Shown here: positions 9,814 to 63,217 of the stretch, piece by piece
How the letters are laid out: every line of letters starts with the position of its first letter
How positions within the stretch are numbered: the first letter of the stretch is position 1
Assembly: GCA_041658185.1 (NCBI GenBank)
Contig: JBBAAR010000008.1
Span: forward strand, 3,723-67,722
Length of the DNA: 64,000 bases
Origin: Elusimicrobiota bacterium
GTDB taxonomy: Bacteria; Elusimicrobiota; UBA8919
Direction of reading: 5' to 3'
The notes under the pieces: generated by a model
The model's input: the letters and a program-made list of their open reading frames with translations, nothing else
Told to the model about the DNA's origin: nothing
Database searches by the model: none
Program-made: the position numbers and the translations under genes

Positions 9814-9832
9814 ATTTCTACCTTTTTATTCA

Positions 9833-25079: not shown

Positions 25080-26177
25080 CTAATCCAGCCGCATAGGCAT
25101 AATTATGTAAAGATAATTCGGGTCGTCAGCGGGTCTCAAAACCCCGGGGCTTACCGGTGTAGTGAACTCAAAAATAATTTCATCGTTGGTCACCACGCGC
25201 AGCATATCAATAACATAATTGGGATTGTAAGCCACAGTGAACGGCTCGCCTTTGTAGTCGGTTTCTATTTCGTCGTTTCCCTCGCCCTTGCCCTGCTCCA
25301 TTGAATAAATTAAAATTTTACCCTTGCCGACTGAGTATTTTATTGACGAGGGCCTGAACGGCAGCACCCGGTCGGTGGCATCAAGCAAATCCTTCGTCTT
25401 TATTTTGAGAGAGCCCTTTTTCTCCTTCGGAATAACTTGTTCGTAATTCGGGAAATGCCCCTCAATAAGCCGGGAGCGCAGAATTGTCTCGCCGATTTTA
25501 AACCCTATCTGGTTTTCAAACACGCCGACTTCCGTTTCCTCAATTGATGTACCTGAAATAATTTTTAAAAGTTCTTCAATCGCTTTTGACGGAATTATAA
25601 ATGTACTTGAGATTTTTTTATCAACCGCATTTTCTTTTGAAATGTAAGCAAGCCGTTTTCCGTCGGTTGAAACCATAATTGCCTTGCCTTTTTCAATAAG
25701 AAAATATATCCCGTTTAAGACGTATCTGGTCTCATCCATTGAAATAGCAAACTTGGTTTTTGTTATCATATCTTTAAGCGTAGCCGTCGCTATTTTGAAT
25801 GTTTTTCCGCCTTCAAAATCAACGGCAACCGGGAACTCCGTCTTTGAAAGTCCTACAAGCGAATATTTTGTTTTCCCGGATTTTATAATTACCTTTTCGT
25901 TTTCGGAAACCTCTATCTCTACTTCCTGCTGAGGCAGTTTTTTGATGATATCAATTATAAGTTTGCCGGGCAGAGTAATTCCGCCTTCTTTCAATACCTG
26001 TGCTTTGATAACCGTTTTAGCGGCAACTTCTAAATCAGTCGCTGCAAGCGTTAAACTATCTTCTTTCGCATCAAAAAGCAGGTTTGACAACTGCGGCAGT
26101 GTGCTTTTTTGCGAGACAGCACCCGATACAATTCCCGTTCCTTTCAAAAGTTCGTCCTTCATACAAACAATTTTCAT
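25080..26177 (-). CDS. dnaN: DNA polymerase III beta sliding clamp
   Basis: 365 aa with three-domain clamp architecture. Immediately downstream of dnaA. Confidence 0.93.
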   Translation of the reverse strand: MKIVCMKDELLKGTGIVSGAVSQKSTLPQLSNLLFDAKEDSLTLAATDLEVAAKTVIKAQVLKEGGITLPGKLIIDIIKKLPQQEVEIEVSENEKVIIKSGKTKYSLVGLSKTEFPVAVDFEGGKTFKIATATLKDMITKTKFAISMDETRYVLNGIYFLIEKGKAIMVSTDGKRLAYISKENAVDKKISSTFIIPSKAIEELLKIISGTSIEETEVGVFENQIGFKIGETILRSRLIEGHFPNYEQVIPKEKKGSLKIKTKDLLDATDRVLPFRPSSIKYSVGKGKILIYSMEQGKGEGNDEIETDYKGEPFTVAYNPNYVIDMLRVVTNDEIIFEFTTPVSPGVLRPADDPNYLYIIMPMRLD

Positions 26178-26444: not shown

Positions 26445-27803
26445 TTATTTTCCCGATTTTATTTCCTGGATTATTTTATTAACCTGTGCCGCAAAATATG
26501 CGTCTTTTGCCATCGTTTTTTCTATTTTATCAAATGAATAAAGAACTGTAGTATGGTCTCTGCCGCCGAATGCCTCGCCGATGTCGGTAGTGGATAGTTC
26601 CGTAAATTTTCTTGCCAGATACATAGCAATCTGTCTCGGATGCGCAATGGCATCCGTTCTTTTTTTGCTTTTCAAATCCTTTATGTCAAGATTGAAATTT
26701 CTTGCTATGATTTTTTGTATGCGTTCCATTGTAACCGGGAACTCCACGGATTCCTGTCTTACTATATCCTTGAAAATTTCATGCGCTCTGTCAACTGTAA
26801 TCTGGCTCCCTGTCAGTGATGCGTGCGCCACTATTTTTATAAGTGCTCCCTCAAGCGACCTTATATTTTCTTTTATCTGCGCTGCGATGAAAAGTATCAC
26901 ATCCTCAGGAACATGAATTCTTTCGTCAAAGATTTTGCTTTTTAATATGGCAATCCTTGTTTCCAAATCCGGCGGCTCAATATCCGCGACCAACCCCCAC
27001 TCAAACCTGCTTTTGAGCCGGTCCTGCAGCGTTATTATTTCTTTAGGTGCGGAGTCGGCGCACAAAACAATCTGTTTCCCGGCGTCATATAAGGAATTAA
27101 AAGTGTGATGAAACACCTCCTGTATCTGCTCGCCCCTCCCGAGGAACTGGATATCGTCAATAAGAAGTGCGTCAAGCGAACGGAATTTTTGGTGGAACTG
27201 CGGCATCCGGCCTTTCTGCATTGAATCAATCATTTCGTTGGCGAATTTTTCGCAGGTGATATATAAAATTTTTGCCGCCGGATATTTTTGTTTCATCCTC
27301 TGCCCTATTGCATGAAAAAGATGCGTTTTTCCCAAACCCACTTTTGCGTAAATAAAAAGCGGATTATACGCCTTGCCGGGATTTTCGGCGACCGCAAGCG
27401 CCGCCGCCTGTGCAAGACGATTGGAATTTCCGACGATAAATTTTTCAAAAGTGTATTTAGGATTAAACTGGTTTTCAAGAAAAACGGATTCTTCTTTTGC
27501 AACAGGTATCGGCTCGGTTATTTGTTCCGCCCGTTTTAACATCTCGTCCAAATTTTTTGTTACAGTATAATCAAGTACCATCGCGGTCCCGACTTGTCCG
27601 GAAATTTCTTTTTCTATATTTTCCTGAATATTTTCCCTGAACCAATCAATAAAAAATTTGTTCGGCACTTCAATTATGAATTTATTTTCAATAATTGAAA
27701 CTGCTTTTGCGGGTTTTATCCACAATTCAAAAGAATTTTCAGGAATTATTTTTTGAATAACTTCAAGCGTTTTTTCCCACAATTCTTGCGGAGTTTTGTT
27801 CAT
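26445..27803 (-). CDS. dnaA: Chromosomal replication initiator DnaA
   Basis: Walker A 'GLGKTHL'. AAA+ boxes. C-terminal DNA-binding 'IAHPRQIAMYLARKFTELS...IGEAFGGRDHTTVLYS'. Confidence 0.95.
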   Translation of the reverse strand: MNKTPQELWEKTLEVIQKIIPENSFELWIKPAKAVSIIENKFIIEVPNKFFIDWFRENIQENIEKEISGQVGTAMVLDYTVTKNLDEMLKRAEQITEPIPVAKEESVFLENQFNPKYTFEKFIVGNSNRLAQAAALAVAENPGKAYNPLFIYAKVGLGKTHLFHAIGQRMKQKYPAAKILYITCEKFANEMIDSMQKGRMPQFHQKFRSLDALLIDDIQFLGRGEQIQEVFHHTFNSLYDAGKQIVLCADSAPKEIITLQDRLKSRFEWGLVADIEPPDLETRIAILKSKIFDERIHVPEDVILFIAAQIKENIRSLEGALIKIVAHASLTGSQITVDRAHEIFKDIVRQESVEFPVTMERIQKIIARNFNLDIKDLKSKKRTDAIAHPRQIAMYLARKFTELSTTDIGEAFGGRDHTTVLYSFDKIEKTMAKDAYFAAQVNKIIQEIKSGK

Positions 27804-29805: not shown

Positions 29806-30660
29806 CTATTTTTTTGATTTATGCCGCAAGATGTTAACGATTCTGTTCAGGTCGTTAAGCGATGCGCACGAGACGATAATTTTTCCTTTTCCCCCGCGGT
29901 ATTTTATTTCAACTTTTGTGCCTAAAATCCGCTGGAGTTCCTCCTCAACCGCAATAATGTTGCTGTCTTTTTTTGATTTTGATTTTTTTGAATTCTTAGA
30001 AATTTTTTCAACATCCCTGACGGTGAGTTGCTGGTTTATTATCCTTTCCAAAAGCAGCCGTTGCTTCATCGGGTCGTCAATTGATGCGATTGCGCGCGCG
30101 TGTCCTTCGGTTATTTTACCCTCTGAAATCGCATCCTGTATGTTCCGCGGAAGAGAAAGCAGCCGGGTTATATTTGCGACTGTTGAACGGGATTTCCCCA
30201 GCGTTTTTGCGAGGTCTTCCTGAGTTAAGTTGAACTCTATCATCAGCCGTTTGTAACCCTTCGCCTCTTCAATCGGATTCAAATCGCTGCGTTGTAAATT
30301 TTCAATTAAAGATATTACGAAACATTCTTTTTCCGAAAGCGGTTTTATTATTGCGGGGATTTCGGAAAGCCCGGCGAGCATTGATGCCCGCCACCTGCGT
30401 TCTCCCATAACGAGTTCGTAAGTGCCGTTTTCGTTTGACGGCCGCACCGTTATCGGTTGCGCAAGCCCGTGTTCCAAAATTGAATCAGCGAGAGTTTTTA
30501 ACTCGGCCTCATCAAATTTTTCTCTTGACTGATATTTATTCGGCTTGATTTTGTTGACAGATATTTTTACAGTTCCTTCTGCGTTGATTATAGGAGTTAA
30601 AAGGGCGTTTCCTATTTCCGGTATAAGTGCTTCCAATCCTTTCCCAAGTGCTTTTCTCAT
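29806..30660 (-). CDS. parB: Chromosome partitioning protein ParB
   Basis: ParB box 'GERRWRA', HTH 'LTQEDLAKTLGKSRSTVAN'. 284 aa. Confidence 0.92.
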   Translation of the reverse strand: MRKALGKGLEALIPEIGNALLTPIINAEGTVKISVNKIKPNKYQSREKFDEAELKTLADSILEHGLAQPITVRPSNENGTYELVMGERRWRASMLAGLSEIPAIIKPLSEKECFVISLIENLQRSDLNPIEEAKGYKRLMIEFNLTQEDLAKTLGKSRSTVANITRLLSLPRNIQDAISEGKITEGHARAIASIDDPMKQRLLLERIINQQLTVRDVEKISKNSKKSKSKKDSNIIAVEEELQRILGTKVEIKYRGGKGKIIVSCASLNDLNRIVNILRHKSKK

Positions 30661-30732
30661 AAATTTCCTCCGTCTGAAAAGTAATACATTTGTAGTAATT
30701 CGTCGTCGGTAGATAATTCTAAAAAATAGATT

Positions 30733-30984
30733 TTATTGTCTATGAAATAAAACATTTGTAGTAATTTTTAATCCACGGGATACCCGCCGCTTTTTCCCTA
30801 TTCTAAATTTTATCATTCCCGATTCCCGTAATTTTTTCAGATGCGAAGTTACAGTCCGTGTGGAAAGTCCGAGATATTTTGCAATCTCCCTTACCGTCGG
30901 CGGGATTTTGCGGTTTTCAAGCGACTTGCGGACAAAATTAAAAATCCGTTTATCCGTTTTTTTTAGCAATATCTTTTTTCTCAT
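30733..30984 (-). CDS. Stand-alone LexA-N-terminal-like winged-helix DNA-binding protein between parA and parB
   Basis: 83 aa. 'IPPTVREIAKYLGLSTRTVTSHLKKLRESGMI' parallels the LexA DNA-binding domain. No S24 peptidase domain. Overlaps the parA 3' end by 35 nt. Confidence 0.55.
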   Translation of the reverse strand: MRKKILLKKTDKRIFNFVRKSLENRKIPPTVREIAKYLGLSTRTVTSHLKKLRESGMIKFRIGKKRRVSRGLKITTNVLFHRQ

Positions 30985-31744
30985 TTTCTCTGCTCGTAAT
31001 CTCTTTTGCCAAATTCATATATGCCTCGGCCCCGCGGGAATGTTTGTCGTATAAAATAACCGGCTTGCCGAAGCCCGGTGCCTCTGCCAGCCGAACATTT
31101 CTCGGAATTATCGTCTTATACACTTTGTCGCCGAAATATTTTTTTATTTCCGTAATCACCTGCCCGGAAAGATTTATTCTCGCATCGTACATAGTCAGCA
31201 AAACTCCTTCAACATAGAGATTTATATTTAAGTTTTTTTTCAAGGCGTCAATTAGTTTGAGAAGTTGCCCCAGTCCTTCTAATGCGTAATACTCACATTG
31301 TATGGGAATAATTACAGAGTGGGCAGCAGTCAGAGCATTTACGGTCAGCAAACCCAAAGACGGCGGGCAATCAATTATGATGTAATCATAGACCTTTTCA
31401 AATTTCGCCAGTGCGGTTTTCAGCCGTGTTTCACGGGCAAGCATATTTACAAGTTCAATTTCGGCGCCCACTAAATCCAGTCCGGACGGTACAATTTCGC
31501 ACCATTCAATTTCCGTCGGAAGAATAGTATCCTCAAGCAGTTTATCATCAATCAAAACATTGTAAATACTTGCCGAGACCTCATCTTTTTTAATTCCGAA
31601 TCCGCTGGTGGAATTCGCCTGCGGATCCATATCAATAAGAAGCGTTTCGTAGGAAAGCAGTGCTAAAGATGCCGATAAATTTATAGCGGTTGTTGTCTTC
31701 CCCACCCCGCCTTTTTGATTTGCAATAACGATAATTTTACTCAT
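30950..31744 (-). CDS. parA: Chromosome partitioning ATPase ParA/Soj
   Basis: Deviant Walker A 'NQKGGVGKTTTAINL'. 264 aa. Confidence 0.93.
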   Translation of the reverse strand: MSKIIVIANQKGGVGKTTTAINLSASLALLSYETLLIDMDPQANSTSGFGIKKDEVSASIYNVLIDDKLLEDTILPTEIEWCEIVPSGLDLVGAEIELVNMLARETRLKTALAKFEKVYDYIIIDCPPSLGLLTVNALTAAHSVIIPIQCEYYALEGLGQLLKLIDALKKNLNINLYVEGVLLTMYDARINLSGQVITEIKKYFGDKVYKTIIPRNVRLAEAPGFGKPVILYDKHSRGAEAYMNLAKEITSRENEKKDIAKKNG

Positions 31745-33329: not shown

Positions 33330-33345
33330 TGTTTCACGTGAAACA
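33330..33345. promoter_or_regulatory. 16-bp perfect palindrome TGTTTCACGTGAAACA (copy 1)
   Basis: Exact palindrome with a CACGTG core. ~80 bp upstream of the 167-aa gene start and just downstream of the rimO stop. Confidence 0.7.
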
Positions 33346-33346
33346 T

Positions 33347-34627
33347 TTAAGCAATCAGGTCATAAACATTTTTAACTTCAAGTATCTTCATTTTTATAAG
33401 AGCGCCCGCTTCTTGTTCGGATGAAAAAATAACCCTGCCGTCTATTTCCGGCGATTGAAATTCGCAATGACCGTATTTTCCGCCGTCAATCAAGACCTCA
33501 AAAGTTTTTCCGACCCGCTTTTTGTTTTTCAAAAAAGTAATTTTCTGCTGTTCCGCCATTATTTCACTCAAACGTTCTTTTTTAACTTTTAACGGGACTA
33601 AATTGTTCATTTTACAAGCCGTTGTTCCTTTTTGCGCCGAATAAATAAACCCGCCCAGCCAATCAAATTCTAATTTTTTAATATCATTTAACAATTTCGT
33701 AAAACTTTTTTCCGTCTCTCCGGGAAACCCGACCATAACGGTTGTCCTGAGTGCTATATCCGGAACTTTTTTTCTCAATTTCTCAATAGTTGAAAAAATT
33801 GTCTTTGATGAAGGTCTTCCCATTTTTTTTAACACTTTGTCATCGGTGTGCTGGATAGGAATATCAACATATTTGCAGACCTTTTCGTTTTCGGCAATTT
33901 CAGAAATCAATTCATCCGTGAAATGTGCGGGGTGAGTATAAAGCAGGCGAATCCATCGCAAACCGTCAATTTTAGAAATTTTTTTGAGAAGTAAAGCAAG
34001 CATCAATTTCCCGCCGTAGATGTCAATTCCGTACATTGTGGTGTCCTGTGCGGTAAGAATCACCTCTTTTCTGCCGGATTTTACTGCATTTTCAACATCG
34101 GTTAAAATATGTTCCATTTTTCTGCTTCTGAAATTTCCCCGTAGTTGCGGGATGATACAATAACTGCACCTGTTGTCGCACCCGTCGGCGATTTTTATGT
34201 ATGCGTAACTTTTAGGTGTTGAAAATAATTTTGGTTCGTCGGATATGATAAATTTCGGAATGCTAATTTTGCTCATCGGTTTTTCGGCTGCTGCTAAAAT
34301 ATCAACAATTTTAGTAAAATCGGAACTTCCCAGTATAGCGTCAATTTTCGGGAATTTTTGAAGTAATGCGGATTTTTCATATTGCGGGAGACATCCGCAA
34401 ACAACAAGTTTTTGGTATTTAGATTTGTTTTTTGATATTTGATTTATCGTATTGTACGCTTCTTTTCTCGCACTATCAATAAAAGCGCAGGTATTTATTA
34501 TAATGATGTCGGCTGTTTTCGGCTCGCCGCATAATGCATAGCCGTTTTTCGTTAAAATGCCGGCGACCGTCTCGGAATCAACCAGATTTTTAGGACATCC
34601 CAAAGAAATTATATGAACTTTTTTCAT
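33347..34627 (-). CDS. rimO: Ribosomal protein S12 methylthiotransferase RimO (radical SAM MTTase with TRAM domain)
   Basis: 'KVHIISLGCPKNLVDSE' N-terminal MTTase cluster. Radical SAM 'CDNRCSYC'. C-terminal TRAM. 426 aa. Confidence 0.88.
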   Translation of the reverse strand: MKKVHIISLGCPKNLVDSETVAGILTKNGYALCGEPKTADIIIINTCAFIDSARKEAYNTINQISKNKSKYQKLVVCGCLPQYEKSALLQKFPKIDAILGSSDFTKIVDILAAAEKPMSKISIPKFIISDEPKLFSTPKSYAYIKIADGCDNRCSYCIIPQLRGNFRSRKMEHILTDVENAVKSGRKEVILTAQDTTMYGIDIYGGKLMLALLLKKISKIDGLRWIRLLYTHPAHFTDELISEIAENEKVCKYVDIPIQHTDDKVLKKMGRPSSKTIFSTIEKLRKKVPDIALRTTVMVGFPGETEKSFTKLLNDIKKLEFDWLGGFIYSAQKGTTACKMNNLVPLKVKKERLSEIMAEQQKITFLKNKKRVGKTFEVLIDGGKYGHCEFQSPEIDGRVIFSSEQEAGALIKMKILEVKNVYDLIA

Positions 34628-34630
34628 TTT

Positions 34631-34683
34631 ATTGCAGAGCGAGTTCTAACGAGTGTCTCAAAGAAATTTGTTCCCGAGCGACC
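34631..34683 (+). repeat. Half copy (right arm) of the MITE-like repeat element, copy B
   Basis: TTGCAGAGCGAGTTCTAACGAGTGTCTCAAAGAAATTTGTTCCCGAGCGAC matches the right half of 9833-9945 at ~90%. Confidence 0.65.
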
Positions 34684-34685
34684 TT

Positions 34686-36512
34686 TCATTGTTTCACGTG
34701 AAACATTTTAAGAGCCGGCTTCGCTTCGCCGGTTTTATCAAAAAGGGCAAAGTCCGTCCACATTTTCTCCGTGTACCATTCCGGGCTCCAGTAGAAAATA
34801 CCCGCTATGTTTTTGTTTCTTGCGCATCCGTCAATAAAATCCGAAATCCACCGTTTTTGTCCGTCAACGGTCAACGGATAACCGACGACCGGCTTGTTCC
34901 ACGCGGCGAATTGTCCTTCAATTTTTCCGGAAGAAGGGTAAGCAAACTCGCAAATAATTACCGGTTTTTTAATCTCCGAAACCAGCAATTCCACAAATTT
35001 TTCCAAGTCCTTAAATGTGTTATGCGGGCTTAAGCCGGAAGAGGGAAAATAGGATAAACCGAGTTCATCAATCTGCACTCCCGCCGTTCTCATTGTTTTA
35101 TAAAAATTTCCACAGAATTCCGGATTCCACCATTGGGTAAGATGCAGTATAAATTTCGCCTGCGGGTTAACCTTTTTTATTCCTTCCTGCGCTGCTTTGA
35201 TGAGTTCCGCCTCGTTGTTCCAGATATTTTTTTTCATCCAGTTGATATTAAAACGCACGCCCCAATCCTCGGCGAACTCTCCGCATATACCGAAGTCAAT
35301 TTCATTTCCTATTTCATATGTGTCAATTTTTATACCTGCCTGTTCAAAAGCCGTTGCGGTATTTTCAGAGTATTTTTTTACTTCTTTGATTTTTTCGCCG
35401 AAAGATAAATTTTTCCATTTTTCCGGGACAGGTTGCTTTACATAATCAGCCCAAGTATCGCTTAAAAAAACAACAAGGTAGGGCTTTAAGCCAGCCCGCA
35501 CGGCCTCTTTTGCAATTTTAATGGAATAATCCAGTCCACTATGCCCGTTTTTATTTGTCCATAACCTTATTCTGAACCAATTAAACCCGTTTTCAGAGAG
35601 AATTTGAAATATATTTTTTGTTTTTCCGTTAATTTTCCAATTTATGCCCTGCTCCGACATATCTAACGAATAATTCGCATCTGCGCCGATTTTGAACTCC
35701 CGTTCCGAATCACCCCAGATAGCGGAAGCCCATTCCGGATGGTCAATAAACGGGTTGCGGTTTCCCTGAATTTGAAATATCGCTTCATTTCTGTCGTTTT
35801 CCTTTTGACTGACAGGGTCGCTTAAATGCCATTTTAGAAGCGTTTTTATTGCCCAGTCGTTAAAATTCCCGCCGTTTTCCGTTACCATCTCGCTTTTTGA
35901 ACAATTAAGCGGGTCCTCGCCCGTCATATATCTTACGACAAAGTAAAAATATCCTCTCGCAAAATCGCCCTTAAATTCATCCGACGGCTCAAATACGTCG
36001 CCCTCAAAACCAAGTCCTTCCCGCGATTTTCCTACTTTTGAAATGCCATACTGCTGATAACTTTTTCCGACCTCGCCCAATGGTTTAACCCCTTTTTGTC
36101 CGTTTGTATGGGCGTCCGCCAAAATAACATTAAAGAGGTCGGAATGCGCGGGCGTATCTTTCCCGCCGCCCCACCAATCTTTAGGCCAGGAATGTTCGCG
36201 GGTTAAAAAACCACCGACCTCGCCGGTTTTTCCGGATTGAACGGACTCAAAAGAGTCAAAGTTATATCCCGAATACATACACCACGGTTTGCCTTCCGGC
36301 GTTGCGTCGGTTTTTTCAAAATATTTCCAAAGTTCCGAGTAATCCGGGACGGAATGGTCTTTTATTATATTATGCAACGATACCCTTAATTCATTCTCGA
36401 TTTTTCCTTTTGCGGAGTCATAGTATCCTTCCGGCTCTTCTGAAAACAGAGAACAACAGGAAAAAACTAAAATGGCCGCAATAATTATATTCTTTCTTTT
36501 TTTCCGTAGCAT
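34686..36512 (-). CDS. Secreted fusion protein: Endonuclease I (EndA/Vvn family) N-terminal domain + glycoside hydrolase family 53 (endo-1,4-beta-galactanase-like) C-terminal domain
   Basis: N-terminus: signal peptide, then 'GFLTREHSWPKDWWGG...HSDLFNVILADAHTNGQKG' (Endonuclease_1 NREH/DLHHL-like motifs). C-terminus: 'FNWFRIRLW', 'VVFLSDTWADYVKQP', 'YEIGNEIDF' (GH53 HYSDTWAD and catalytic-Glu GNE motifs). 608 aa. Confidence 0.7.
   Translation of the reverse strand: MLRKKRKNIIIAAILVFSCCSLFSEEPEGYYDSAKGKIENELRVSLHNIIKDHSVPDYSELWKYFEKTDATPEGKPWCMYSGYNFDSFESVQSGKTGEVGGFLTREHSWPKDWWGGGKDTPAHSDLFNVILADAHTNGQKGVKPLGEVGKSYQQYGISKVGKSREGLGFEGDVFEPSDEFKGDFARGYFYFVVRYMTGEDPLNCSKSEMVTENGGNFNDWAIKTLLKWHLSDPVSQKENDRNEAIFQIQGNRNPFIDHPEWASAIWGDSEREFKIGADANYSLDMSEQGINWKINGKTKNIFQILSENGFNWFRIRLWTNKNGHSGLDYSIKIAKEAVRAGLKPYLVVFLSDTWADYVKQPVPEKWKNLSFGEKIKEVKKYSENTATAFEQAGIKIDTYEIGNEIDFGICGEFAEDWGVRFNINWMKKNIWNNEAELIKAAQEGIKKVNPQAKFILHLTQWWNPEFCGNFYKTMRTAGVQIDELGLSYFPSSGLSPHNTFKDLEKFVELLVSEIKKPVIICEFAYPSSGKIEGQFAAWNKPVVGYPLTVDGQKRWISDFIDGCARNKNIAGIFYWSPEWYTEKMWTDFALFDKTGEAKPALKMFHVKQ
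34690..34705. promoter_or_regulatory. 16-bp palindrome TGTTTCACGTGAAACA (copy 2)
   Basis: Overlaps the last codons (MFHVKQ*) of the nuclease-GH53 gene and lies ~65 bp upstream of the rimO start. Confidence 0.7.
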
Positions 36513-36526
36513 ATTATTATATTAAC

Positions 36527-36768
36527 CTTATTATTTCTCGCTGAGCGAGCAAGAAATTTGTAATCATATCGCCGAGCGAGGGAGTTGGTGAGTCGGGTTT
36601 CTCACAGGTCGGCTTACTCTTTCAGCCGACCGGGAGAGAGCACTGCATCAAGCAGAGACAGCGTTCCGACGAGACAATTCCCGTGCGACCGAAGCCGACA
36701 GGGCGGTCGGATGAGCGACCAAAGGGAGTCCCTTTAGGGGTGTTTCCGACAAATTTACTTGCGAGCGA
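36527..36768 (+). repeat. MITE-like repeat element, copy C, with the central segment replaced or expanded by a ~185-bp GC-rich structured insert
   Basis: Left arm TTTCTCGCTGAGCGAGCAAGAAATTTG and right arm AAATTTACTTGCGAGCGA match the termini of copies A and D. The interior (36561-36745) is ~60% GC, versus ~36% for the genome. Confidence 0.6.
36561..36745. ncRNA. Candidate structured ncRNA (unknown class) inside repeat copy C
   Basis: Multiple stems: GTCGGCT-N9-AGCCGAC, CGGGA...TCCCG enclosing CTGC-AUCAA-GCAG, CCGAC-AGGGCG-GTCGG, AAAGGGAGTCCCTTT. Sits in the 5' leader region of the nuclease-GH53 gene (minus strand). Confidence 0.35.
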
Positions 36769-36769
36769 T

Positions 36770-36785
36770 TGTTTCACGTGAAACA
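36770..36785. promoter_or_regulatory. 16-bp palindrome (copy 3, extended to the 20-bp ATTGTTTCACGTGAAACAAT)
   Basis: Perfect 20-bp palindrome at the 3' end of the DUF2723 gene and ~260 bp upstream of the nuclease-GH53 start. Confidence 0.7.
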
Positions 36786-36786
36786 A

Positions 36787-38529
36787 TTATCTTTCATACT
36801 CCGATTTCCGGAGAAACTCCATCTCCGCTTCTTTTTTCAAACCCGCCTGCGAAAGAATAACTCCGGCATTGACGGATGCGTCTGTATAATACGAAATCAC
36901 AGTTTTTTCATAGTAATCAAGTTGGTTTTTAGGTTTTCTAAAAGGATAGAGTTCAAAAAGGAAACTGCCGCTGCTGACCTTTTCCGCTTTTTGAATTGCA
37001 GTCGCATTTTTAATCACCCTGCAGCCCAGGCCCCGCGGGATAACATAATTTTCAAGCCCCGGATGCACGCCTTCGGTAAAAACGGGCTCTTTGTCCGATT
37101 TTTTAAGAAGCGCATCAACAGTAGAAACAGAATTTTCATTGTAAAAAATTTCGGGGTATTTCTGCTCGTATTCGGCAATCCGCCAGGGCATAAATGAACT
37201 CAGAATTACTTTTACATCCCGCCGCATTTTTTCAACATTTTGAAAATAATTAACGGTAAAAATAGGTATGTCGGCGGTCATTAAAAGATAGGAATTTTCA
37301 GGAATTGAACGGAGCAGGTTTTTACCGTAATCGTGGGCAAGAAAATTGTTCCGCTTGTCTAAATGTTGAAAATTTTGGTAAAACAGAAATCCCGGCAAAA
37401 TGAGAAAAAGCGGGGATAAAATACGGGAAAAAAGTACCTGTCCCTTTATTATATCCATAAGTCCGCCAATCCCCATACCTATTATTAAGGCAATAAAAAC
37501 AGAGGACAAAACGCAAGCCGGTTCAAGTATCACAAGTGAAAATTCATTGTTCGGCAGTCGGGAGAGTAATATAAAAAACGGTCCGGTGAACAGGAAAAAA
37601 AAGAGCATTGTTTTTCCGAACCCGCCTTGAAGGTCTCTAAAACAGAAAAAAACACCGCTCGCCGTCAAAATAATGCCGAGCCGTCCGAATTGGTTCCTAA
37701 ACAATTGCCAAAACATTTTTGCAGAATCTTTAAGCGTATTTCCGTGCGCCGCGCCGGAATGCCTGCTTGAAAGTTTGACCGTGCCGTAGTCGGTCCTCAT
37801 CAAAACATTCGCAAAACTGCTTATTGTCTGCGGATTGCCCCAGTTGTTTAACGGCTGTTGCTTCGCCCTTATAGGAAGGAAAATATAAACGGAAAAGCCG
37901 AGAAGAAAAAACAGCGAGAGGGAGAGCAATTTTACCTTTTTACGCTTTAATAAATAATAAATTATTCCTGGGAGTAAAAGCACAAGCGTATGGTGGTTTC
38001 CGAGACCCAAACCGAATAAGAAAGCGGCGAGGAGCGTGTAGTTGCCGGGCTTGTTCGGCTTAGTAGCAAGTAACAAATAAACTATCAAAATGGCGAAAAG
38101 GGCGTTCATTGAGTATATTTCCGCCAAAATGGATTGCCGCCAAAAAGCAGTGGAAAACGCCAGCGTTAACGCAGATATAAAGGCAGTGAAGGAAAGCGAA
38201 AAAAAGTGAAAAAAAGTGTTTGACGAACTGCTTTCATTCAATCTCGCCCACTTCCGTTCACTTCTTTTCACTATTAAATAGACCATCATAACGGTTAATG
38301 AAGATGTAAAAGCGGAAAAAATGTTCAAACGGTAGCCGATGTTTCCGAAAGGAATTAGAATCGTCCATATTTTGCCGAGAATCACATAAACGGGATACCC
38401 CGGCGGATGTGCTATTCCCAGAGTAAAAGCAGAAGCGGTTAAATCACCTGCGTCCCTGAAAGGCGAAACGGAGGGGTAAAGAGTATAAAGATATGTTGAA
38501 AAACTGATTAAAAACAGAAAAATAGCCAT
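36787..38529 (-). CDS. DUF2723-family (TMEM260-like) GT-C-fold membrane glycosyltransferase-like protein
   Basis: 580 aa. N-terminal 'YPSVSPFRDAGDLTASAFTLGIAHPPGYPVYVILGKIWTILIPFGNIGYRLN' is ~70% identical to the same segment of 61204..63084. Multi-TM. C-terminal soluble region. Confidence 0.65.
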   Translation of the reverse strand: MAIFLFLISFSTYLYTLYPSVSPFRDAGDLTASAFTLGIAHPPGYPVYVILGKIWTILIPFGNIGYRLNIFSAFTSSLTVMMVYLIVKRSERKWARLNESSSSNTFFHFFSLSFTAFISALTLAFSTAFWRQSILAEIYSMNALFAILIVYLLLATKPNKPGNYTLLAAFLFGLGLGNHHTLVLLLPGIIYYLLKRKKVKLLSLSLFFLLGFSVYIFLPIRAKQQPLNNWGNPQTISSFANVLMRTDYGTVKLSSRHSGAAHGNTLKDSAKMFWQLFRNQFGRLGIILTASGVFFCFRDLQGGFGKTMLFFFLFTGPFFILLSRLPNNEFSLVILEPACVLSSVFIALIIGMGIGGLMDIIKGQVLFSRILSPLFLILPGFLFYQNFQHLDKRNNFLAHDYGKNLLRSIPENSYLLMTADIPIFTVNYFQNVEKMRRDVKVILSSFMPWRIAEYEQKYPEIFYNENSVSTVDALLKKSDKEPVFTEGVHPGLENYVIPRGLGCRVIKNATAIQKAEKVSSGSFLFELYPFRKPKNQLDYYEKTVISYYTDASVNAGVILSQAGLKKEAEMEFLRKSEYER

Positions 38530-38545
38530 TGTTTCACGTGAAACA
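38530..38545. promoter_or_regulatory. 16-bp palindrome TGTTTCACGTGAAACA (copy 4)
   Basis: Abuts the start codon of the DUF2723 gene (minus strand), in the divergent intergenic region with the TPR gene. Confidence 0.7.
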
Positions 38546-38907
38546 TTAAATGATTTGGTATAATTGGAGACCGTTGAAAAACCTTGTTTTTGTAGGCACG
38601 GTCTATGACCGTGCTAATATGCCATAGACGGAGTACGAACAAAGTTCGTGTCTACAATAAATATACCAAACACTTTTTCACCGGTATTATTATACAAAAA
38701 ATTTAGTTTAATTCAAGTCCTGTTGGATTAAGATTCTCTATCTAATTGGGGCAAGCCCGCCAAAAACAAAAAATCGTTCTGCATTTTTTTTGTTGTATTT
38801 TTTCAAAAATTTTGTATAATTTTTTTAGATGGAAAAAGACTTTTTCGTTAGAAAAACCGGAAAAACAGGGGAAACCAGAACCGTCCCCGTATTGCGTTGA
38901 GAAATAT

Positions 38908-41118
38908 ATGAAAAAACGTTTAGAGAATACCGTCCCGAATCACCTCTGGAAACAATGGATTGCAATTGGGATAATAGTTTTGGCAACAACAGTTGTCTAT
39001 TATAACTCACTAAAAGCACCGTTTATATTTGATGATATTGGAAAAATTGTTGAAAATCCCGATATAAACGATTTAAGAAATCTCAAAACAAAACTCATTT
39101 ACCCTTATAGTAAGAATAAAATATGGGAGCGAAACGATCCATCCCGCCCAGTTACATATTTGACTTTTACACTAAATTATTATTTTGGGAAATTAAATAC
39201 TTTCGGTTATCATCTATTTAATCTGCTCATACATATATTTAATGCGATTCTGCTGTTCTTTTTGACAAAAAAAATGATATTGTATCTCTGTAAGAAAGAT
39301 TCTGTTGTTTTCTCTTTTTTTGTGGCATTGTTTTTTGCCGTTCATCCAATCAACACAGCCGCAGTAACGTATATTTTTAGTCGTTCCGATGTTTTAGCTA
39401 CTTTTTTTTATATTTCATCTTTAATGTTATTTATAAAAACACGAGAAGTGACTTCGGACTTTGGACATCGGACACTTTTATACATTTTATCATTAGTGTG
39501 TTTTATATTAGCCCTTTTCTCAAAGCAAATAGCAGTAACTTTGCCTGCGATAGTGCTGGCTTTTGATTATATTTTCCTGAACGATTTCAGTGCAAAAAAA
39601 ACTCTTGAAAAAAAATATTATCACATACCGTTCTGGATTCTACTGATTGCGTATTTATTATTCCGATATTTTTATTTTGGCGGGCTGGGAGATGTAGAAG
39701 CAGAGACAAAAGATACTTGGAATAGATATTCCTATTTAATTATTCAGCCATACATAATTTTAAAGTATTTAAAACTGTTGCTTATTCCTATCGGACTTTG
39801 CATAGACCATCTAATCAGCCCTGTAAAAACATTGGAATTAAAAACAATAATATCTTTTTTGTCTCTTGCGGTAATATTCCGGTTAACTTACAGGACTTAT
39901 AAAAAGAAAACAGATATTTCAAAGATAATTCTATTTTGTGTGTTGTGGTTTTTTATAATTTTATCTCCGACATCCAGTTTTTTTCCTACCACCAGTGCAT
40001 TAGTTGAGAACCGGCTGTATATTTCAGGTATTGGATTTTATTTTTTTATTACTTTTTTGTATTTTAAAATATTTAAGATAGATTTTGCACTTGCGCAGGA
40101 GTTGAATTTAACCCGGAATTGGATTTTATTTAGTGTTATAATGCTTCATATTTCCCTGCTTGGTTATGGGACAATAAAACGAAATCAACTTTATCAAAAT
40201 CCTATATTACTATGGCAGGATGTTATTTCAAAATATCCTAATAATCCAAGAGCATATACCAATCTCGGACTTTTATTGGAAAAGTTAAACAGATTTACAG
40301 AAGCGGAGAAAGAATACAGGGAGGCGATAAGGATAAATCCGAATGCTGAAAAAGCGCACAACAATCTCGGCGGTTTATTGTGTAATTCAAAAAGATTTAA
40401 AGAAGCAGAGAGAGAATTCAGAGAGGCAATAAGAATAAATCCAAATAATGCAGGAGTGCACTACAATTTCGGACTTTTATTGTATACTTCAAAGAGATTT
40501 AAAGAGGCAGAGAGAGAATTCAGGGCGGCAATAAGAATAAATCCAAATTATTTAGAGGCGCACAACAATCTCGGCGGTTTATTGTATAATTCAAAAAGAT
40601 TTGAAGAAGCAGAGAGAGAATTCAGGGCGGCAATAAGAATAAATCCAAATTATTCAGAGGCGCACTACAATTTCGGACTTTTATTGTATACTTCAAAGAG
40701 ATTTAAAGAGGCAGAGAGAGAATTCAGGGCGGCAATAAGAATAAATCCAAATTATTTAGAGGCGCACAACAATCTCGGCGGTTTATTGTATAATTCAAAA
40801 AGATTTAAAGAAGCAGAGAGAGAATTCAGGGCGGCAATAAGAATAAATCCAAATTATTCAGAGGCGCACAACAATCTCGGAATTTTATTGGTAAGGTTAA
40901 ACAAATTGGAAGAAGCAGAAAAAGAATTCAGGGAAGCGATAAGGATAATGCCGAATAATACAGAAGCACACTACAATTTAGGCAATTTGTATTATGAACT
41001 GAAAGAATATAACAAGGCACTTCGAAAATTTGAAACTGCTTTAAGATTGTCACCAGACAATCAATTTATTCAAGATAAAATCAAGTTGTTACGTCAATTA
41101 ACGATGGAGAGGAAGTAA
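38908..41118 (+). CDS. TMTC/DUF1736-like membrane GT-C protein with a C-terminal TPR array
   Basis: 'PFIFDDIGKIVENPDI' is the FxxDD motif of the PMT/TMTC-like family. ~11 TM. C-terminal ~10 TPR units. Start taken at the internal ATG (38908); the ORF track begins at 38746. Confidence 0.7.
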   Translation: MKKRLENTVPNHLWKQWIAIGIIVLATTVVYYNSLKAPFIFDDIGKIVENPDINDLRNLKTKLIYPYSKNKIWERNDPSRPVTYLTFTLNYYFGKLNTFGYHLFNLLIHIFNAILLFFLTKKMILYLCKKDSVVFSFFVALFFAVHPINTAAVTYIFSRSDVLATFFYISSLMLFIKTREVTSDFGHRTLLYILSLVCFILALFSKQIAVTLPAIVLAFDYIFLNDFSAKKTLEKKYYHIPFWILLIAYLLFRYFYFGGLGDVEAETKDTWNRYSYLIIQPYIILKYLKLLLIPIGLCIDHLISPVKTLELKTIISFLSLAVIFRLTYRTYKKKTDISKIILFCVLWFFIILSPTSSFFPTTSALVENRLYISGIGFYFFITFLYFKIFKIDFALAQELNLTRNWILFSVIMLHISLLGYGTIKRNQLYQNPILLWQDVISKYPNNPRAYTNLGLLLEKLNRFTEAEKEYREAIRINPNAEKAHNNLGGLLCNSKRFKEAEREFREAIRINPNNAGVHYNFGLLLYTSKRFKEAEREFRAAIRINPNYLEAHNNLGGLLYNSKRFEEAEREFRAAIRINPNYSEAHYNFGLLLYTSKRFKEAEREFRAAIRINPNYLEAHNNLGGLLYNSKRFKEAEREFRAAIRINPNYSEAHNNLGILLVRLNKLEEAEKEFREAIRIMPNNTEAHYNLGNLYYELKEYNKALRKFETALRLSPDNQFIQDKIKLLRQLTMERK
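40260..40960 (+). repeat. Near-identical tandem 102-bp (34-codon) TPR-encoding DNA repeats
   Basis: ~7 units alternating two subtypes ('YLEAHNNLGGLLYNSKRFKEAEREFRAAIRINPN' and 'YSEAHYNFGLLLYTSKRFKEAEREFRAAIRINPN') with >90% nucleotide identity. Confidence 0.85.
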
Positions 41119-48493: not shown

Positions 48494-48602
48494 AATAGAA
48501 AATCAGCGTCTAAGAAGTAATACAAATGTATCAGTTTTCAGACGACAAAATTTATTATTAAATTAAATCTTCCGACGACTAATTAAAACAAATGTTTTAA
48601 TT

Positions 48603-50138
48603 TTGAGAGAGAAAAAAATGGAAAAAAGAACTTTTTTGGCAATAATTCTGTCATTGGTAATTCTTTTCGGTTGGAATTTGCTTTTCAAACCTAAACCCCG
48701 CTTCCCGGTAGAAGCGCCCGCTGCAGCGAATACTTGTGAGGTATCGCCGGCAATATCTCCCGGGCAAAAAAACATCGCACCGTCAATCCCGTCCCAAAAA
48801 TCTGCCGCAAAATTTCAGATAGAAACGGACAAGGTGATATATGTTTTAAGCACGGACGGAGCGTCAATTGTAAATTGTTTTCTCAAAGAGGAGCGGCTGA
48901 AAGAAAAAACTACGGTTGAACTCGTATTAAACGGTAAATTATTAAACGATAAGGATACCGGCATCTGGTCAAACATTTGGGCGAAAAATCAGTCGTGCCA
49001 GGCAACTTTTGTCCGTTCAACGGGCGATTTTGATATAGAGAAAACTTTTTATTTTAGTAACAATTCACATATAGTTGATGTAAAATATACCGTCTCAAAT
49101 AAAACCAAATCCCCGAAAAGTTTTGAGGGTTTAACGCTGTCAATCGGCCCCGGGCTCGGTACCGATAAAAAAGAATTAAAGGAAAATATGAGATTATTAA
49201 GAGCAATTTCATATTCGCAAAAAAAAGTTGAAAAATTAAATGCCGGTGTCTATCAATTCCCGTCAAAGTGGGCAGGCATTGACAATAGATATTTCCTTTC
49301 AGTTTTTTTGAGGACGAATAATGACTTCAAAAATATAAAAGTTGAAAAAGCGGAAAAGTTGCCGTTAATGGAAATTTCCACCGGTAAAATTGATTTTTTG
49401 CCGTCTGAAAAAAAGAGTTTTTCAACGATTGCCTATATAGGTCCGAAGGGTTATACGCATCTTAAGGGGATAAAAGTTGACGGATTAAAACCGCAACTTG
49501 AAAAGGCGGTTGATTTCGGATTTTTCGGCGACCTCGGAGAATTAGCGCTTTCCGCGTTGAATTATATCTATAAATACACCCACAATTACGGTTGGGCGAT
49601 TTTTATAATCTCGGTAATTCTTAATATCATATTTTATCCGCTTTCTAAAAAGTCATTCACATCTGCACAGAAAATGAAATTGGTTCAGGGAGATGTAAAG
49701 GCACTTCAAATAAAATACAAAAGCGACCCGAAAAAAATGAATACTGAAACATGGGCGCTTTACAAAGCAAAGGGTGTCAATCCGTTCAGCGGGTGTCTTC
49801 CGATGCTGGTCCAGTTGCCTATTTTCTGGGCGCTTTTTACGATGTTGAGAAACGCCTACGAATTGCGCGGTGCATATTTTATGTTCTGGATAACGGATTT
49901 ATCGGCGAAAGACCCTTATTATATTTTACCTATTTTAATGGGCGGCGGAATGTTTTTGCAGCAGTGGATGTCCACGAACATTGCTGACCCGACGCAGAAG
50001 CAGATGATGATAATGATGCCCATAATTTTTACCGTGATGTTTCTCGGATTTCCTTCGGGTCTGGTTATCTACTGGCTTACAAACAGCATTGTAACGATTT
50101 TGGAGCAGTGGCTTATTTTTAAGAAAGCAAAAGCATGA
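48603..50138 (+). CDS. yidC: Membrane protein insertase YidC
   Basis: Periplasmic N-domain plus C-terminal 5-TM core ('PYYILPILMGGGMFLQQWMS', 'GLVIYWLTNSI'). 511 aa. Confidence 0.92.
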   Translation: MREKKMEKRTFLAIILSLVILFGWNLLFKPKPRFPVEAPAAANTCEVSPAISPGQKNIAPSIPSQKSAAKFQIETDKVIYVLSTDGASIVNCFLKEERLKEKTTVELVLNGKLLNDKDTGIWSNIWAKNQSCQATFVRSTGDFDIEKTFYFSNNSHIVDVKYTVSNKTKSPKSFEGLTLSIGPGLGTDKKELKENMRLLRAISYSQKKVEKLNAGVYQFPSKWAGIDNRYFLSVFLRTNNDFKNIKVEKAEKLPLMEISTGKIDFLPSEKKSFSTIAYIGPKGYTHLKGIKVDGLKPQLEKAVDFGFFGDLGELALSALNYIYKYTHNYGWAIFIISVILNIIFYPLSKKSFTSAQKMKLVQGDVKALQIKYKSDPKKMNTETWALYKAKGVNPFSGCLPMLVQLPIFWALFTMLRNAYELRGAYFMFWITDLSAKDPYYILPILMGGGMFLQQWMSTNIADPTQKQMMIMMPIIFTVMFLGFPSGLVIYWLTNSIVTILEQWLIFKKAKA

Positions 50139-52293: not shown

Positions 52294-52392
52294 TTGCTTG
52301 AATTTGCTTTTTTTATCGTCTGAAAAATGAAACATTTGTTATAGTTTTCCGTTGGCAAATTTTTTTCAGATTTTAATTAAGAGGAGAGAAAA

Positions 52393-54260: not shown

Positions 54261-55298
54261 ATGAAAAAGTTCAGATTAAGTTTTTTAATTGTTTTAAGTA
54301 TTAATGTAATCCAAATTTTAAGATTATTTGCCGACGACACATACGTAGAAATTGCCGGGGGCGCCGCTAAAATTATGGATGAACACAACAGTATATCTAT
54401 GGTTTCAGAATATGTAATAATGGATATTACGAAAAGTGAATATTACACAGTTGATGCGAGTTTTGAATTTTATAATAATGGAGTTGATACTGAAACAGTG
54501 GTTGGTTTTCCACAAGTGGAATGGGTTATGAATAATGATGATTTAAAAGACGAGGAGTTTTCTAATTTTGTGTCATTCAAGACATTTATAAACGAATCCG
54601 AAGCAAAAACTGTAGTAATACCGAATTCTGAAAAAAAGACAGATGTAAAAAAATGGATAATAAAAACAGTAAAATTCCCTTCCCAAAAAGTGACAAAAAC
54701 AAGAGTAATTTATAAAGCACCTTATGGGGATGTTTCAGGTAGAACTATTTTGGCTCTTTATTTGTATGGAACCGGTGGCTCTTGGTATGGTAGTATTGGT
54801 AAAGTAATATTTGATTTAAGGTTTTCAAATGACACATGGATACAAATAGAAAATTCTAATTATTTATATCCCTTTATGTCACTATGGTGGAAAAAACGAT
54901 CAGGACAAGAGATTCCAATGGTTATTTTCAAACGTAGGAAAAATGAAATGATTTGGGAATTAAAAGATATTGAACCCCAACCGAATGATTATTTTAAAAT
55001 TTCCTTAGGAGGACATGGAAGGCATATACCTTGGGGTTACTCATTTGATTGGGATAAAAATAAACTTGATGAACCTTGTCTTGAGTTGCTGTCAATGTGG
55101 CAATTGAAAATTTTCAGGAATGAGTTTTATGCAAGACACGGAAGAATTTTCAAAGATAAAAAATTACAAGAATATTTTGAGTCACAGGATTGGTACAAGC
55201 CAAACCCAAATTTCTCTGAGAAAATGTTAAATAAAACTGAATTAGAAAATATCAAAAAAATCAAAGATTATGAAACAAAAATAGAGAAAGAAAAATAA
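54261..55298 (+). CDS. Secreted YARHG-domain protein
   Basis: Signal peptide. C-terminal 'LKIFRNEFYARHGRIFKDKKLQEYF' is the YARHG motif. Confidence 0.75.
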   Translation: MKKFRLSFLIVLSINVIQILRLFADDTYVEIAGGAAKIMDEHNSISMVSEYVIMDITKSEYYTVDASFEFYNNGVDTETVVGFPQVEWVMNNDDLKDEEFSNFVSFKTFINESEAKTVVIPNSEKKTDVKKWIIKTVKFPSQKVTKTRVIYKAPYGDVSGRTILALYLYGTGGSWYGSIGKVIFDLRFSNDTWIQIENSNYLYPFMSLWWKKRSGQEIPMVIFKRRKNEMIWELKDIEPQPNDYFKISLGGHGRHIPWGYSFDWDKNKLDEPCLELLSMWQLKIFRNEFYARHGRIFKDKKLQEYFESQDWYKPNPNFSEKMLNKTELENIKKIKDYETKIEKEK

Positions 55299-55302
55299 TT
55301 TT

Positions 55303-55336
55303 ATGTTCACATATCCGGAAAAATTTGATGTGATTG
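55303..55336 (+). repeat. Degenerate duplicate of the mnmG 5' end (copy 1; attL-like scar) heading cassette 1
   Basis: ATGTTCACATATCCGGAAAAATTTGATGTGATTG is 32/34 identical to the true mnmG start at 59150. Encodes [11 protein letters not shown] then diverges to a stop. Confidence 0.85.
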
Positions 55337-57169: not shown

Positions 57170-57183
57170 AAAAATAGATTATT

Positions 57184-57223
57184 ATGTTCACATATCCGGA
57201 AAAATTTGATGTGATTGCGGTTG
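57184..57223 (+). repeat. Degenerate duplicate of the mnmG 5' end (copy 2) heading cassette 2
   Basis: 36/40 identical to the mnmG start. Encodes [15 protein letters not shown]... then a stop after 24 codons. Confidence 0.85.
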
Positions 57224-58430: not shown

Positions 58431-58433
58431 GAT

Positions 58434-58472
58434 TCGTTCGGCACTTATCCGGAAAAATTTGATGTGATTGCG
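58434..58472 (+). repeat. Degenerate duplicate of the mnmG 5' end (copy 3, lacks ATG) heading cassette 3
   Basis: GTTCGGCACTTATCCGGAAAAATTTGATGTGATTGCGG matches the mnmG start with a 3-nt insertion and 2 mismatches. Confidence 0.8.
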
Positions 58473-59142: not shown

Positions 59143-59149
59143 GAAAATT

Positions 59150-63084: not shown

Positions 63085-63087
63085 AAG

Positions 63088-63198: not shown

Positions 63199-63217
63199 GG
63201 TAGAGAATGGTTAAAAA

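Follow-up and report, generated by a model that had tools for sequence, protein, structure and literature searches.

Four perfect palindromes beside parAB and dnaA in an Elusimicrobia-like chromosome are very probably parS sites

Introduction

The consensus parS sequence, the target of the partition protein ParB, has been printed as (TGTTTCAC-GTGAAACA) (bioRxiv 10.1101/724823), and Table 1 of a review gives TGTTNCACGTGAAACA for Bacillus, Corynebacterium, and Burkholderia and lists for Hyphomonas the exact 16-mer that is the subject of this work (PMC7022226). The same review describes parS sites and par operons as origin-proximal and the GERRxRA motif as the CTP-binding arginine patch of ParB, which is needed for clamp closure and spreading (PMC7022226). 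The residues that set the DNA-binding specificity are R173/T179/A184/G201 in Caulobacter ParB and Q/K/K/R in Noc, and among them R173 and G201 are the determinants for parS (bioRxiv 10.1101/724823). The Noc-binding sites (NBS, TATTTCCCGGGAAATA) of Bacillota are also 16-bp palindromes, bound by a ParB paralog. Searching the literature for parS in Elusimicrobia gave nothing relevant.

Here we analyze a 64-kb window (the whole stretch of DNA under study) in which four copies of a perfect palindrome had been read, in an original prediction, as the operator of a dimeric regulator that was left without a name. The sequence comparisons presented below indicate that the four palindromes are very probably chromosomal parS, i.e. 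the centromere-like loading sites of a ParABS partition system. Such a system is ordinary and already well known, and it is not the operator of a new regulator.

Results

The 16-mer TGTTTCACGTGAAACA occurs in the 64-kb window in exactly four exact copies, starting at positions 33330, 34690, 36770, and 38530, and dinucleotide shuffles gave a chance expectation of 0.00 for this sequence, so that both the existence of four perfect palindromes and their excess over chance were borne out. No degenerate extra copies were found at ≤3 mismatches across the same window. The copy at 36770 extends, as had also been pointed out, to a 20-bp palindrome with AT flanks (ATTGTTTCACGTGAAACAAT, 36768-36787). The four copies lie as follows.

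33330..33345, no strand assigned: putative parS site 1, one base past the rimO stop codon (33347-33349)
34690..34705, no strand assigned: putative parS site 2, overlapping the final codons of the EndoI-GH53 gene and 2 nt from a half copy of repeat E
36770..36785, no strand assigned: putative parS site 3, abutting a full copy of repeat E
38530..38545, no strand assigned: putative parS site 4, abutting the ATG of the DUF2723/TMEM260-like gene

The spacings between the sites (1360, 2080, and 1760) are all multiples of 80 and all starts end in 0, which seemed artificial. A planted or artefactual origin of the palindromes was rejected because two public contigs that were assembled independently of the window carry them at identical positions: sites 4, 3, and 2 are present in Logan contig L121 and site 1 in Logan contig L001 (both from SRR8449812), with 100% identity across the sites. 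The spacings in the relatives described below are non-periodic (1980 and 1414 in L003; 1760, 1271, and 3392 in L084; 1831 in L085; 1519 in L083), and this, together with the identity of the independent contigs, leads us to regard the multiples of 80 as a coincidence.

Letter for letter, all four copies are the published consensus parS, and the four exact TGTTTCACGTGAAACA matches all conform to the consensus TGTTNCACGTGAAACA of chromosomal parS. The exact 16-mer appears in 27 papers, which are essentially all devoted to ParB-parS. The genes of a partition system are located in the same window.

29806..30660, minus strand: parB (284 aa), predicted binder of the four sites
30950..31744, minus strand: parA (264 aa), Walker-type partition ATPase with a KGGVGKT motif

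The parA-parB pair is complete and lies 1.6-6.8 kb from the sites, with an 83-aa LexA-like wHTH ORF between the two genes. The Pfam families ParA, CbiA, and AAA_31 were recognized in parA, whose product is 55-84% identical to the ParA proteins of 80 genomes, and ParB_N, HTH_ParB, and ParB_C were recognized in parB (on the identical gene of L001). The ParB protein passed the TIGR00180 model parB_part with 198 bits (cut-off, 58), and its best matches among solved structures were ParB/Spo0J (E values of 1e-54 to 1e-50). It contains the motifs GERRWRAS and ENLQR, the first of which aligns with the same motif in the ParB structures of M. xanthus, Thermus, and H. pylori. At the positions equivalent to Caulobacter residues 173/179/184/201 it has R/I/S/G, and its specificity, as judged from these residues, is predicted to be of the parS type (R..G) rather than of the Noc type (Q..R). 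The local ParB scores well on the Noc model (240 bits) yet remains under the cut-off (315), and the NBS sequence differs from the palindrome found here at the diagnostic positions 1 and 6 of each half-site. The identification of the palindromes as NBS was rejected on these three grounds, i.e. the diagnostic positions, the specificity residues (R/I/S/G versus Q/K/K/R of Noc), and the score below the cut-off.

The binder that the original prediction had left unnamed is thus instead predicted to be ParB, whose gene lies 2.7 kb away beside parA. The proposal that the palindrome is the target of a dimeric regulator holds in that the predicted ParB is a dimeric HTH DNA-binding protein, and it fails as regards a transcriptional operator.

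To the left of parB lie two further genes that mark the region, and to the right of site 4 the gene orientation flips.

26445..27803, minus strand: dnaA, origin marker (Pfam DnaA_N, Bac_DnaA, and Bac_DnaA_C on the identical L001 gene)
25080..26177, minus strand: dnaN (DNA_pol3_beta families on the identical L001 gene)
38546..38745, no strand assigned: divergent intergenic region, gene-strand switch

The start of dnaA is 5.5-10.7 kb from the sites, and dnaA and dnaN together are located 5.5-13 kb away. The cumulative GC skew reaches its minimum at ~37 kb, within the parS cluster, and the large ORFs are almost all on the minus strand to the left of 38546..38745 and mostly on the plus strand to its right. 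Because the cluster sits on the GC-skew minimum and at the gene-strand switch, it is placed next to the origin. Canonical DnaA boxes were not enriched in the 64-kb window (21 found versus 16 expected), and oriC was not pinpointed. The half-site TGTTTCACG resembles the DnaA box TTWTNCACA; this identity was rejected, since the boxes are not enriched and the parS match explains the motif fully.

The related Elusimicrobia contigs conserve parS while the flanking non-coding DNA diverges. Contig L003, whose ParA and RimO are 84% and 64% identical to those of the window, has three exact parS sites at the same junctions around the DUF2723 gene and rimO, within unrelated flanks; exact parS sites are also kept at the corresponding junctions in L083, L084, L085, and L114, and L004 has versions with 1-2 mismatches. 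A parS is found at the junction of site 1 also in L083, L084, L114, and L003, the arrangement around site 2 is the same in L085, the junction of site 3 has a parS also in L084 (site 2266), and the left flank of site 4 is shared, together with its parS, with L083, L084, and L085. Across many phyla, 57 of 82 parA loci contain parS-like sites (≤2 mismatches), 104 in all, where by our estimate ~0.3 would be expected by chance in 1.29 Mb, and this set includes a conserved site within the parB gene of Paenibacillus-type genomes. Exact-protein look-ups for RimO and DUF2723 found no record.

The distances between the palindromes and the gene starts had been given correctly in the original prediction: site 1 is 79 bp from the start of the 167-aa gene, site 2 is 63 bp upstream of the rimO start, site 3 is 258 bp from the start of the EndoI-GH53 gene, and site 4 abuts an ATG. 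A location between genes and 0-258 bp upstream of their starts would suit an operator through which an ordinary transcription factor, for instance the 83-aa LexA-like wHTH protein or NikR, co-regulates the 167-aa, rimO, GH53, and DUF2723 genes. In agreement with such an operator, a strong promoter-like site of the 167-aa gene has its -35 element 16 nt downstream of site 1, a small wHTH gene is nearby, and ParB has been reported to affect the expression of parS-adjacent genes in some species, e.g. S. pneumoniae (PMC4488948). However, the sequence is exactly the target of ParB, the neighboring genes lack functional coherence, and what follows a given parS junction varies among the relatives L083, L084, and L085 (a serpin gene, GH53, or repeat E and rimO). 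Moreover, none of the four sites overlaps a -35/-10 pair, other phyla have the motif within ORFs as well (22 of 84 sites in coding sequence), and L003 retains the sites but lacks the wHTH gene. The role as an operator in gene regulation was therefore not upheld, given a cluster adjacent to the origin, neighbor genes that are unrelated and variable among relatives, and sites within coding sequence, and we consider a conventional operator to be very unlikely. Transcriptional effects on the neighboring genes, if any, would be secondary.

A contact of the palindromes with gene ends had been missed earlier: sites 1, 2, and 3 reach stop codons or come within one base of them. Site 3 starts one base past the stop of the DUF2723/TMEM260-like gene, and the end of the GH53 gene, six codons long (MFHVKQ-stop), is encoded by site 2. 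Site 4 borders the divergent intergenic region where the gene orientation flips, and a 120-nt inverted-repeat insert abuts it.

The proximity of three sites to stop codons, on the transcribed strand, would fit an element acting at the RNA level, i.e. a small hairpin where cistrons meet, acting as terminator, processing site, or mRNA stabilizer. Against this, the palindrome as RNA would be limited to a 6-bp stem rich in A and U, with a 4-nt loop and lacking a U tract, and the contact with stop codons is not shared by L003, where the site is 52 nt past the rimO stop. No terminator-like site was predicted at any of the four copies, which agrees with the earlier statement that the palindrome is not a terminator hairpin. 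A search of the 257-bp spacer and of the surroundings of the sites gave 0 Rfam matches, both at gathering thresholds and at E ≤ 1, and no tRNAs were found in the same regions. An RNA-level element at the palindromes is thus extremely improbable. For the spacer and the DNA near the sites, a riboswitch or other structured RNA was likewise rejected in view of the lack of an Rfam match; the full copy of repeat E, which also has no Rfam match, has an RNA fold with a z score of -4.15.

Repeat E is present next to two of the four putative parS sites.

36513..36769, plus strand: repeat E, full copy (modular intergenic repeat), whose right arm (..AAATTTACTTGCGAGCGA) abuts site 3
34631..34687, plus strand: repeat E, half copy (right arm), 2 nt from site 2

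The observation that two palindromes abut MITE-like repeat arms was therefore correct, and it raised the question of whether the palindrome has no function and is just the end, or a passenger, of a mobile MITE-like repeat that has scattered it. Of 10 aligned E copies from two lineages, 8 have their right arm 0-7 nt away from the palindrome, and in the 20 kb of L003 each of the three copies of E directly adjoins it. Nevertheless, no copy of E accompanies sites 1 and 4, and the palindrome is missing at the E copies of 9800-9960 and 63061-63230, so that the co-occurrence suggested by the original prediction is frequent but not obligatory in either direction. Furthermore, E is modular and strongly diverged, with a mean column identity of 31%, whereas the palindrome stays perfect, and the 16-mer is kept beside parAB in phyla that lack E. 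These data leave very little probability to a mere passenger of E. Dispersal of the palindrome together with E is compatible with its identity as parS and does not replace it.

Discussion

Established knowledge of the ParB family allows a mechanism to be proposed for the four predicted parS sites. A ParB dimer would dock on each 16-bp palindrome through two HTH domains, and binding to parS would set off the CTP-dependent closure of the N-terminal gate of ParB. The closed clamp would slide from parS onto adjacent DNA, and therefore many ParB dimers would build up along several kb. The four sites fall within 5.2 kb, and the ParB accumulations would there join into a single partition complex that covers the origin region; nucleoid-bound ParA-ATP would pull the partition complex and the newly replicated origins apart, and the complex would probably also load the SMC condensin.

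For the annotation, the gain is that the motif is fixed as parS and its predicted binder is named (ParB, 29806..30660), and the window is thereby assigned to the region of the replication origin in the Elusimicrobia-like chromosome of an uncultured organism. If the motif is parS, a false lead is removed, and there is no orphan regulator to hunt.

As a separate observation, whole genes differ between close relatives, with breakpoints located exactly at parS and apparently within it. The genes apparently gained or lost encode a DUF2723-type glycosyltransferase, a serpin, and the EndoI-GH53 fusion, and the classes of parS flanks recombine (A with a, b, or f; B with b or e; E with b). Repeat E may home to the centromere palindrome, or it may carry it. 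That the origin-proximal parS array doubles as a platform for gene-cassette turnover in this Elusimicrobia lineage is a tentative idea that we regard as rather unlikely. If it were true as a recurrent parS-dependent process, and not an incidental deletion between short direct repeats, it would represent an undescribed side effect or exploitation of centromere sites. The new interest of the locus is limited to such side observations, i.e. the breakpoints of gene gain and loss at parS and the modular repeat associated with parS.

The gene cassettes of integrons resemble this arrangement: single genes share one orientation, each has the same palindromic repeat (attC in integrons) behind it, and the gene content between the repeats varies among relatives with breakpoints at the repeat. 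The attC sites are 57-141 bp long and imperfect, whereas the repeat found here is 16-20 bp long, is perfect, and has a different, established function. No integrase was found among the neighboring genes scanned. The palindromic operators of dimeric HTH regulators share with the sites described here a perfect inverted repeat and a homodimeric HTH protein; in contrast, the binder of parS is a sliding clamp, gated by CTP, which nucleates a complex for DNA segregation on the kilobase scale, and the position of parS relative to promoters is unconstrained.

The closest known systems are the chromosomal ParABS systems of type Ia, such as Spo0J-parS of B. subtilis and ParB-parS of Caulobacter, with which this locus shares the 16-bp consensus, the clustering of several copies near oriC together with a parAB operon, a ParB with GERRxRA, HTH, and a C-terminal dimerization domain, and a Walker ATPase ParA. 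There is no essential difference between those systems and the one described here. The local peculiarities are that all four copies are perfect consensus and lie exactly at gene boundaries, that several sites abut a modular repeat, and that an 83-aa wHTH ORF is present between parA and parB. The parS model calls neither for a location exactly at gene boundaries nor for the frequent company of repeat E, and both features hint that duplication or recombination has also had a part in the past of the sites.

Identity and layout of the palindromic sites

The 16-bp palindrome TGTTTCACGTGAAACA was found by exact match exactly four times in the 64-kb window, at 33330 (parS1), 34690 (parS2), 36770 (parS3) and 38530 (parS4), against an expectation of 0.00 in dinucleotide-preserving shuffles. 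No further copy was detected in the whole 64 kb when up to three mismatches were allowed, and the four perfect sites therefore form a tight, isolated 5.2-kb cluster. A check of the sequence agreed with the original prediction on these coordinates, on a 20-bp extension at parS3 and on the distances from sites to gene starts. All genes of the cluster are carried by the minus strand and, in gene sense, are arranged as follows:

36787..38529, minus strand: DUF2723/TMEM260-like gene; parS4 abuts its ATG and parS3 lies one base past its stop codon
257 bp between parS3 and the next gene: structured spacer
34686..36512, minus strand: Endonuclease-I::GH53 gene; its last six codons are parS2
33347..34627, minus strand: rimO; parS1 lies one base past its stop codon
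TTGACA-16-TATCAT, after parS1 and ahead of the next gene: strong promoter-like site
last in order, minus strand: 167-aa gene

All four sites are present in two independently assembled Logan contigs of SRR8449812 that are 100% identical to the window (L121, spanning 38596-34654, and L001, spanning 34204-23857). The spacings between sites (1360, 2080 and 1760) are each a multiple of 80; an artefact was rejected and this periodicity considered a coincidence, because the independent contigs confirm the positions and the spacings in relatives are non-periodic.

A full-text search with the exact 16-mer returned 27 papers that deal essentially throughout with ParB-parS, and a review that lists the parS consensus for Bacillus, Corynebacterium and Burkholderia gives this very 16-mer as the parS of Hyphomonas (PMC7022226). 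Judged by its sequence, the palindrome is a canonical chromosomal parS, and the identity of the four copies as the centromere (parS) sites of ParABS-type partition is well established and already known.

Origin setting and conservation

The genes lying to the left of the cluster include a par operon and replication genes:

30950..31744, minus strand: parA, ParA-type Walker ATPase with KGGVGKT (Pfam ParA, CbiA, AAA_31)
29806..30660, minus strand: parB (Pfam ParB_N, HTH_ParB, ParB_C)
26445..27803: dnaA, just beyond parB
25080..26177: dnaN, just beyond parB
with dnaA and dnaN, just beyond parB: ndk

Left of 38.5 kb nearly every large ORF runs on the minus strand, to the right most run on the plus strand, and the GC skew changes sign at this switch point, with its cumulative minimum near 37 kb, which places the parS cluster at the replication-origin region, the conserved location of par operons and parS sites (PMC7022226). 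No exact oriC position emerged from the window, in which canonical DnaA boxes show no enrichment (21 versus 16 expected). The organism is Elusimicrobia-like, ParA having its nearest genome matches in two MAGs, 'Elusimicrobia bacterium RIFOXYD2_FULL_34_15' (84%) and 'ADurb.Bin231' (69%).

Among 82 loci collected by ParA, 57 carry parS at up to two mismatches (104 sites, with about 0.3 estimated by chance in 1.29 Mb), and these 57 span Bacillota, Gemmatimonadota, Zixibacteria, Actinomycetota and others. In relatives, exact copies are kept in the closer metagenomic contigs L083, L084, L085 and L114 (RimO 84-91% identical), and the contig L003 (RimO 64%, ParB 76% identical to the window) has three exact copies, one ahead of DUF2723, one separating it from rimO and one past rimO, in flanks unrelated to those of the window; L004 carries variants with one or two mismatches. 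This conservation represents a clear phylogenetic footprint. The original prediction regarded the palindrome as a candidate operator and named an equal frequency in coding regions genome-wide as evidence to the contrary; in the ParA loci, 22 of the 84 sites at up to one mismatch lie within long ORFs, among them the conserved one of Paenibacillus-type genomes about 500 nt into parB, which speaks against an operator.

Relationship of parS to repeat E

The modular intergenic repeat E has a conserved left arm (GAGCGAGCAAGAAATTT) and right arm (..AAAGAAATTTGyTTGCGAGCGA), with a variable, hairpin-rich interior; its RNA fold is good (z = -4.15) and it matched no Rfam family. Its copies in the window and in L003 are:

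9800-9960, window: copy without parS
63061-63230, window: copy without parS
34631-34687, window: half copy, 2 nt from parS2
36513-36769, window: full copy, abutting parS3
5274-5542, 7361-7522 and 8953-9100, L003: three copies

The caveat that this MITE-like repeat may have dispersed the palindrome has substance, E and parS being often linked: of 10 aligned copies from the window, L083, L084, L085 and L003 (three copies), 8 have a parS at a distance of 0-7 nt from their right arm, across two lineages. The linkage is nevertheless not obligatory in either direction, E diverges while the palindrome stays perfect, and phyla without E conserve the same 16-mer next to parAB. Perhaps E contributed to the duplication of parS, or it homes to a position beside parS, but it does not displace the parS identity of the palindrome.

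A 120-nt segment abutting parS4 (38567-38686) has long terminal inverted repeats and an RNA fold of z = -3.5; L085, although collinear elsewhere, lacks it, and the segment thus looks like a small MITE-like insertion. Elsewhere, a 46-nt repeat (..ATGTTCACATATCCGGAAAAATTTGATGTGATTG) at 55291-55336, 57172-57217, 58425-58470 and 59138-59183, close to gene boundaries in a series of consecutive plus-strand genes, may be a common N-terminal coding sequence or a common leader. A 790-aa protein (38746..41118) owes its TPR repeats to six tandem 102-nt units at 40230-41039, which show 70-86% identity to the reference copy.

Gene turnover at parS

When the flanks of 16 parS copies were classified (50 nt on each side), class A, the left flank preceding the array, was found joined via parS to three different right flanks:

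class A plus DUF2723 start: window and L084
class A plus repeat E plus rimO: L083
class A plus GH53 start: L085

Likewise, class B, the 3' end of DUF2723, leads to E in the window and to a serpin gene in L084 (2287-3528; Pfam Serpin, E value 9e-121); that gene has parS at both ends, the downstream one being followed by E. Gene content between parS copies varies accordingly, L083 lacking DUF2723 and GH53, L085 lacking DUF2723, and L084 having the extra serpin gene. These junctions imply two or more events of gene gain or loss with breakpoints exactly inside parS, most simply explained by identical direct repeats of 18-23 bp having recombined or slipped; a dedicated cassette mechanism is unsupported, and no integrase was found among the neighbouring genes scanned. 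This turnover, seen in a handful of short metagenomic contigs, is the sole part of the analysis with potential for novelty.

The TMEM260-like/DUF2723 paralogs at 61204-63084 (plus strand) and 36787-38529 (minus strand) are 84% identical over a common stretch of 179 nt, and the second paralog has C-terminal TPR repeats and an E copy immediately after it. The minus-strand gene at 34686-36512 unusually fuses an Endonuclease-I domain (residues 40-260) to a GH53 galactanase domain (276-604). parS2 encodes the final six residues of its product (MFHVKQ), a parS tail that is absent from the L084 ortholog.

ParB as the predicted binder

The original prediction recognised correctly a target of a dimeric DNA-binding protein; the predicted binder is the ParB encoded next door, and chromosome segregation, rather than operator control by an unidentified regulator, is the function indicated. 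Site identity, the cognate proteins with their motifs, origin-adjacent position and conservation come from the present analysis, and the steps from nucleation to SMC loading from the ParB family literature (including PMC7022226). Each palindrome would nucleate ParB dimers, parS would stimulate CTP-dependent N-gate closure, and the closed clamps would slide to flanking DNA, so that from four closely spaced sites a single partition complex could form across the origin region, to be segregated by ParA-ATP and likely to load SMC. With parS4 right at a start codon and parS1 separated by 16 nt from a -35, the adjoining genes might be modulated incidentally, as a secondary effect of ParB occupancy there.

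An 83-aa LexA-like winged-HTH ORF (30733-30984, minus strand) sits between parA and parB, with a 35-nt overlap into the 3' end of parA. The gene calls of L001 and L002 include it as well, and L084 has an 85-aa ORF in the same position; L003 has none, its parA-parB gap being 88 nt. Another family of palindromic motifs, approximately CGTCTGAAAA..TACAAATGTA..TTTTCAGACG, occurs at 30671-30708, 30731-30766, 48507-48544, 48581-48616 and 52311-52346, just ahead of parB and ahead of the genes whose starts are at 48603 and 52393. It is an operator candidate, perhaps one for the winged-HTH protein encoded nearby.

The parB product scored 198 bits against TIGR00180 (cut-off 58) and 240 bits against the model of the ParB paralog Noc, under its cut-off of 315. 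Its closest solved structures are ParB/Spo0J of Myxococcus, Thermus, Helicobacter and Caulobacter (E values 1e-54 to 1e-50), and it carries an N-terminal LGKGLEAL peptide, an ENLQR box and GERRWRAS, its version of the arginine-patch motif for CTP binding (PMC7022226). Experiments have shown that specificity for parS versus the Noc-binding site is set by four positions, at which Caulobacter ParB carries R173/T179/A184/G201 and Noc carries Q/K/K/R (bioRxiv 10.1101/724823). The window ParB has R/I/S/G, so its two base-contacting determinants R and G are of the ParB type, in contrast to the Q/K/K/R of Noc.
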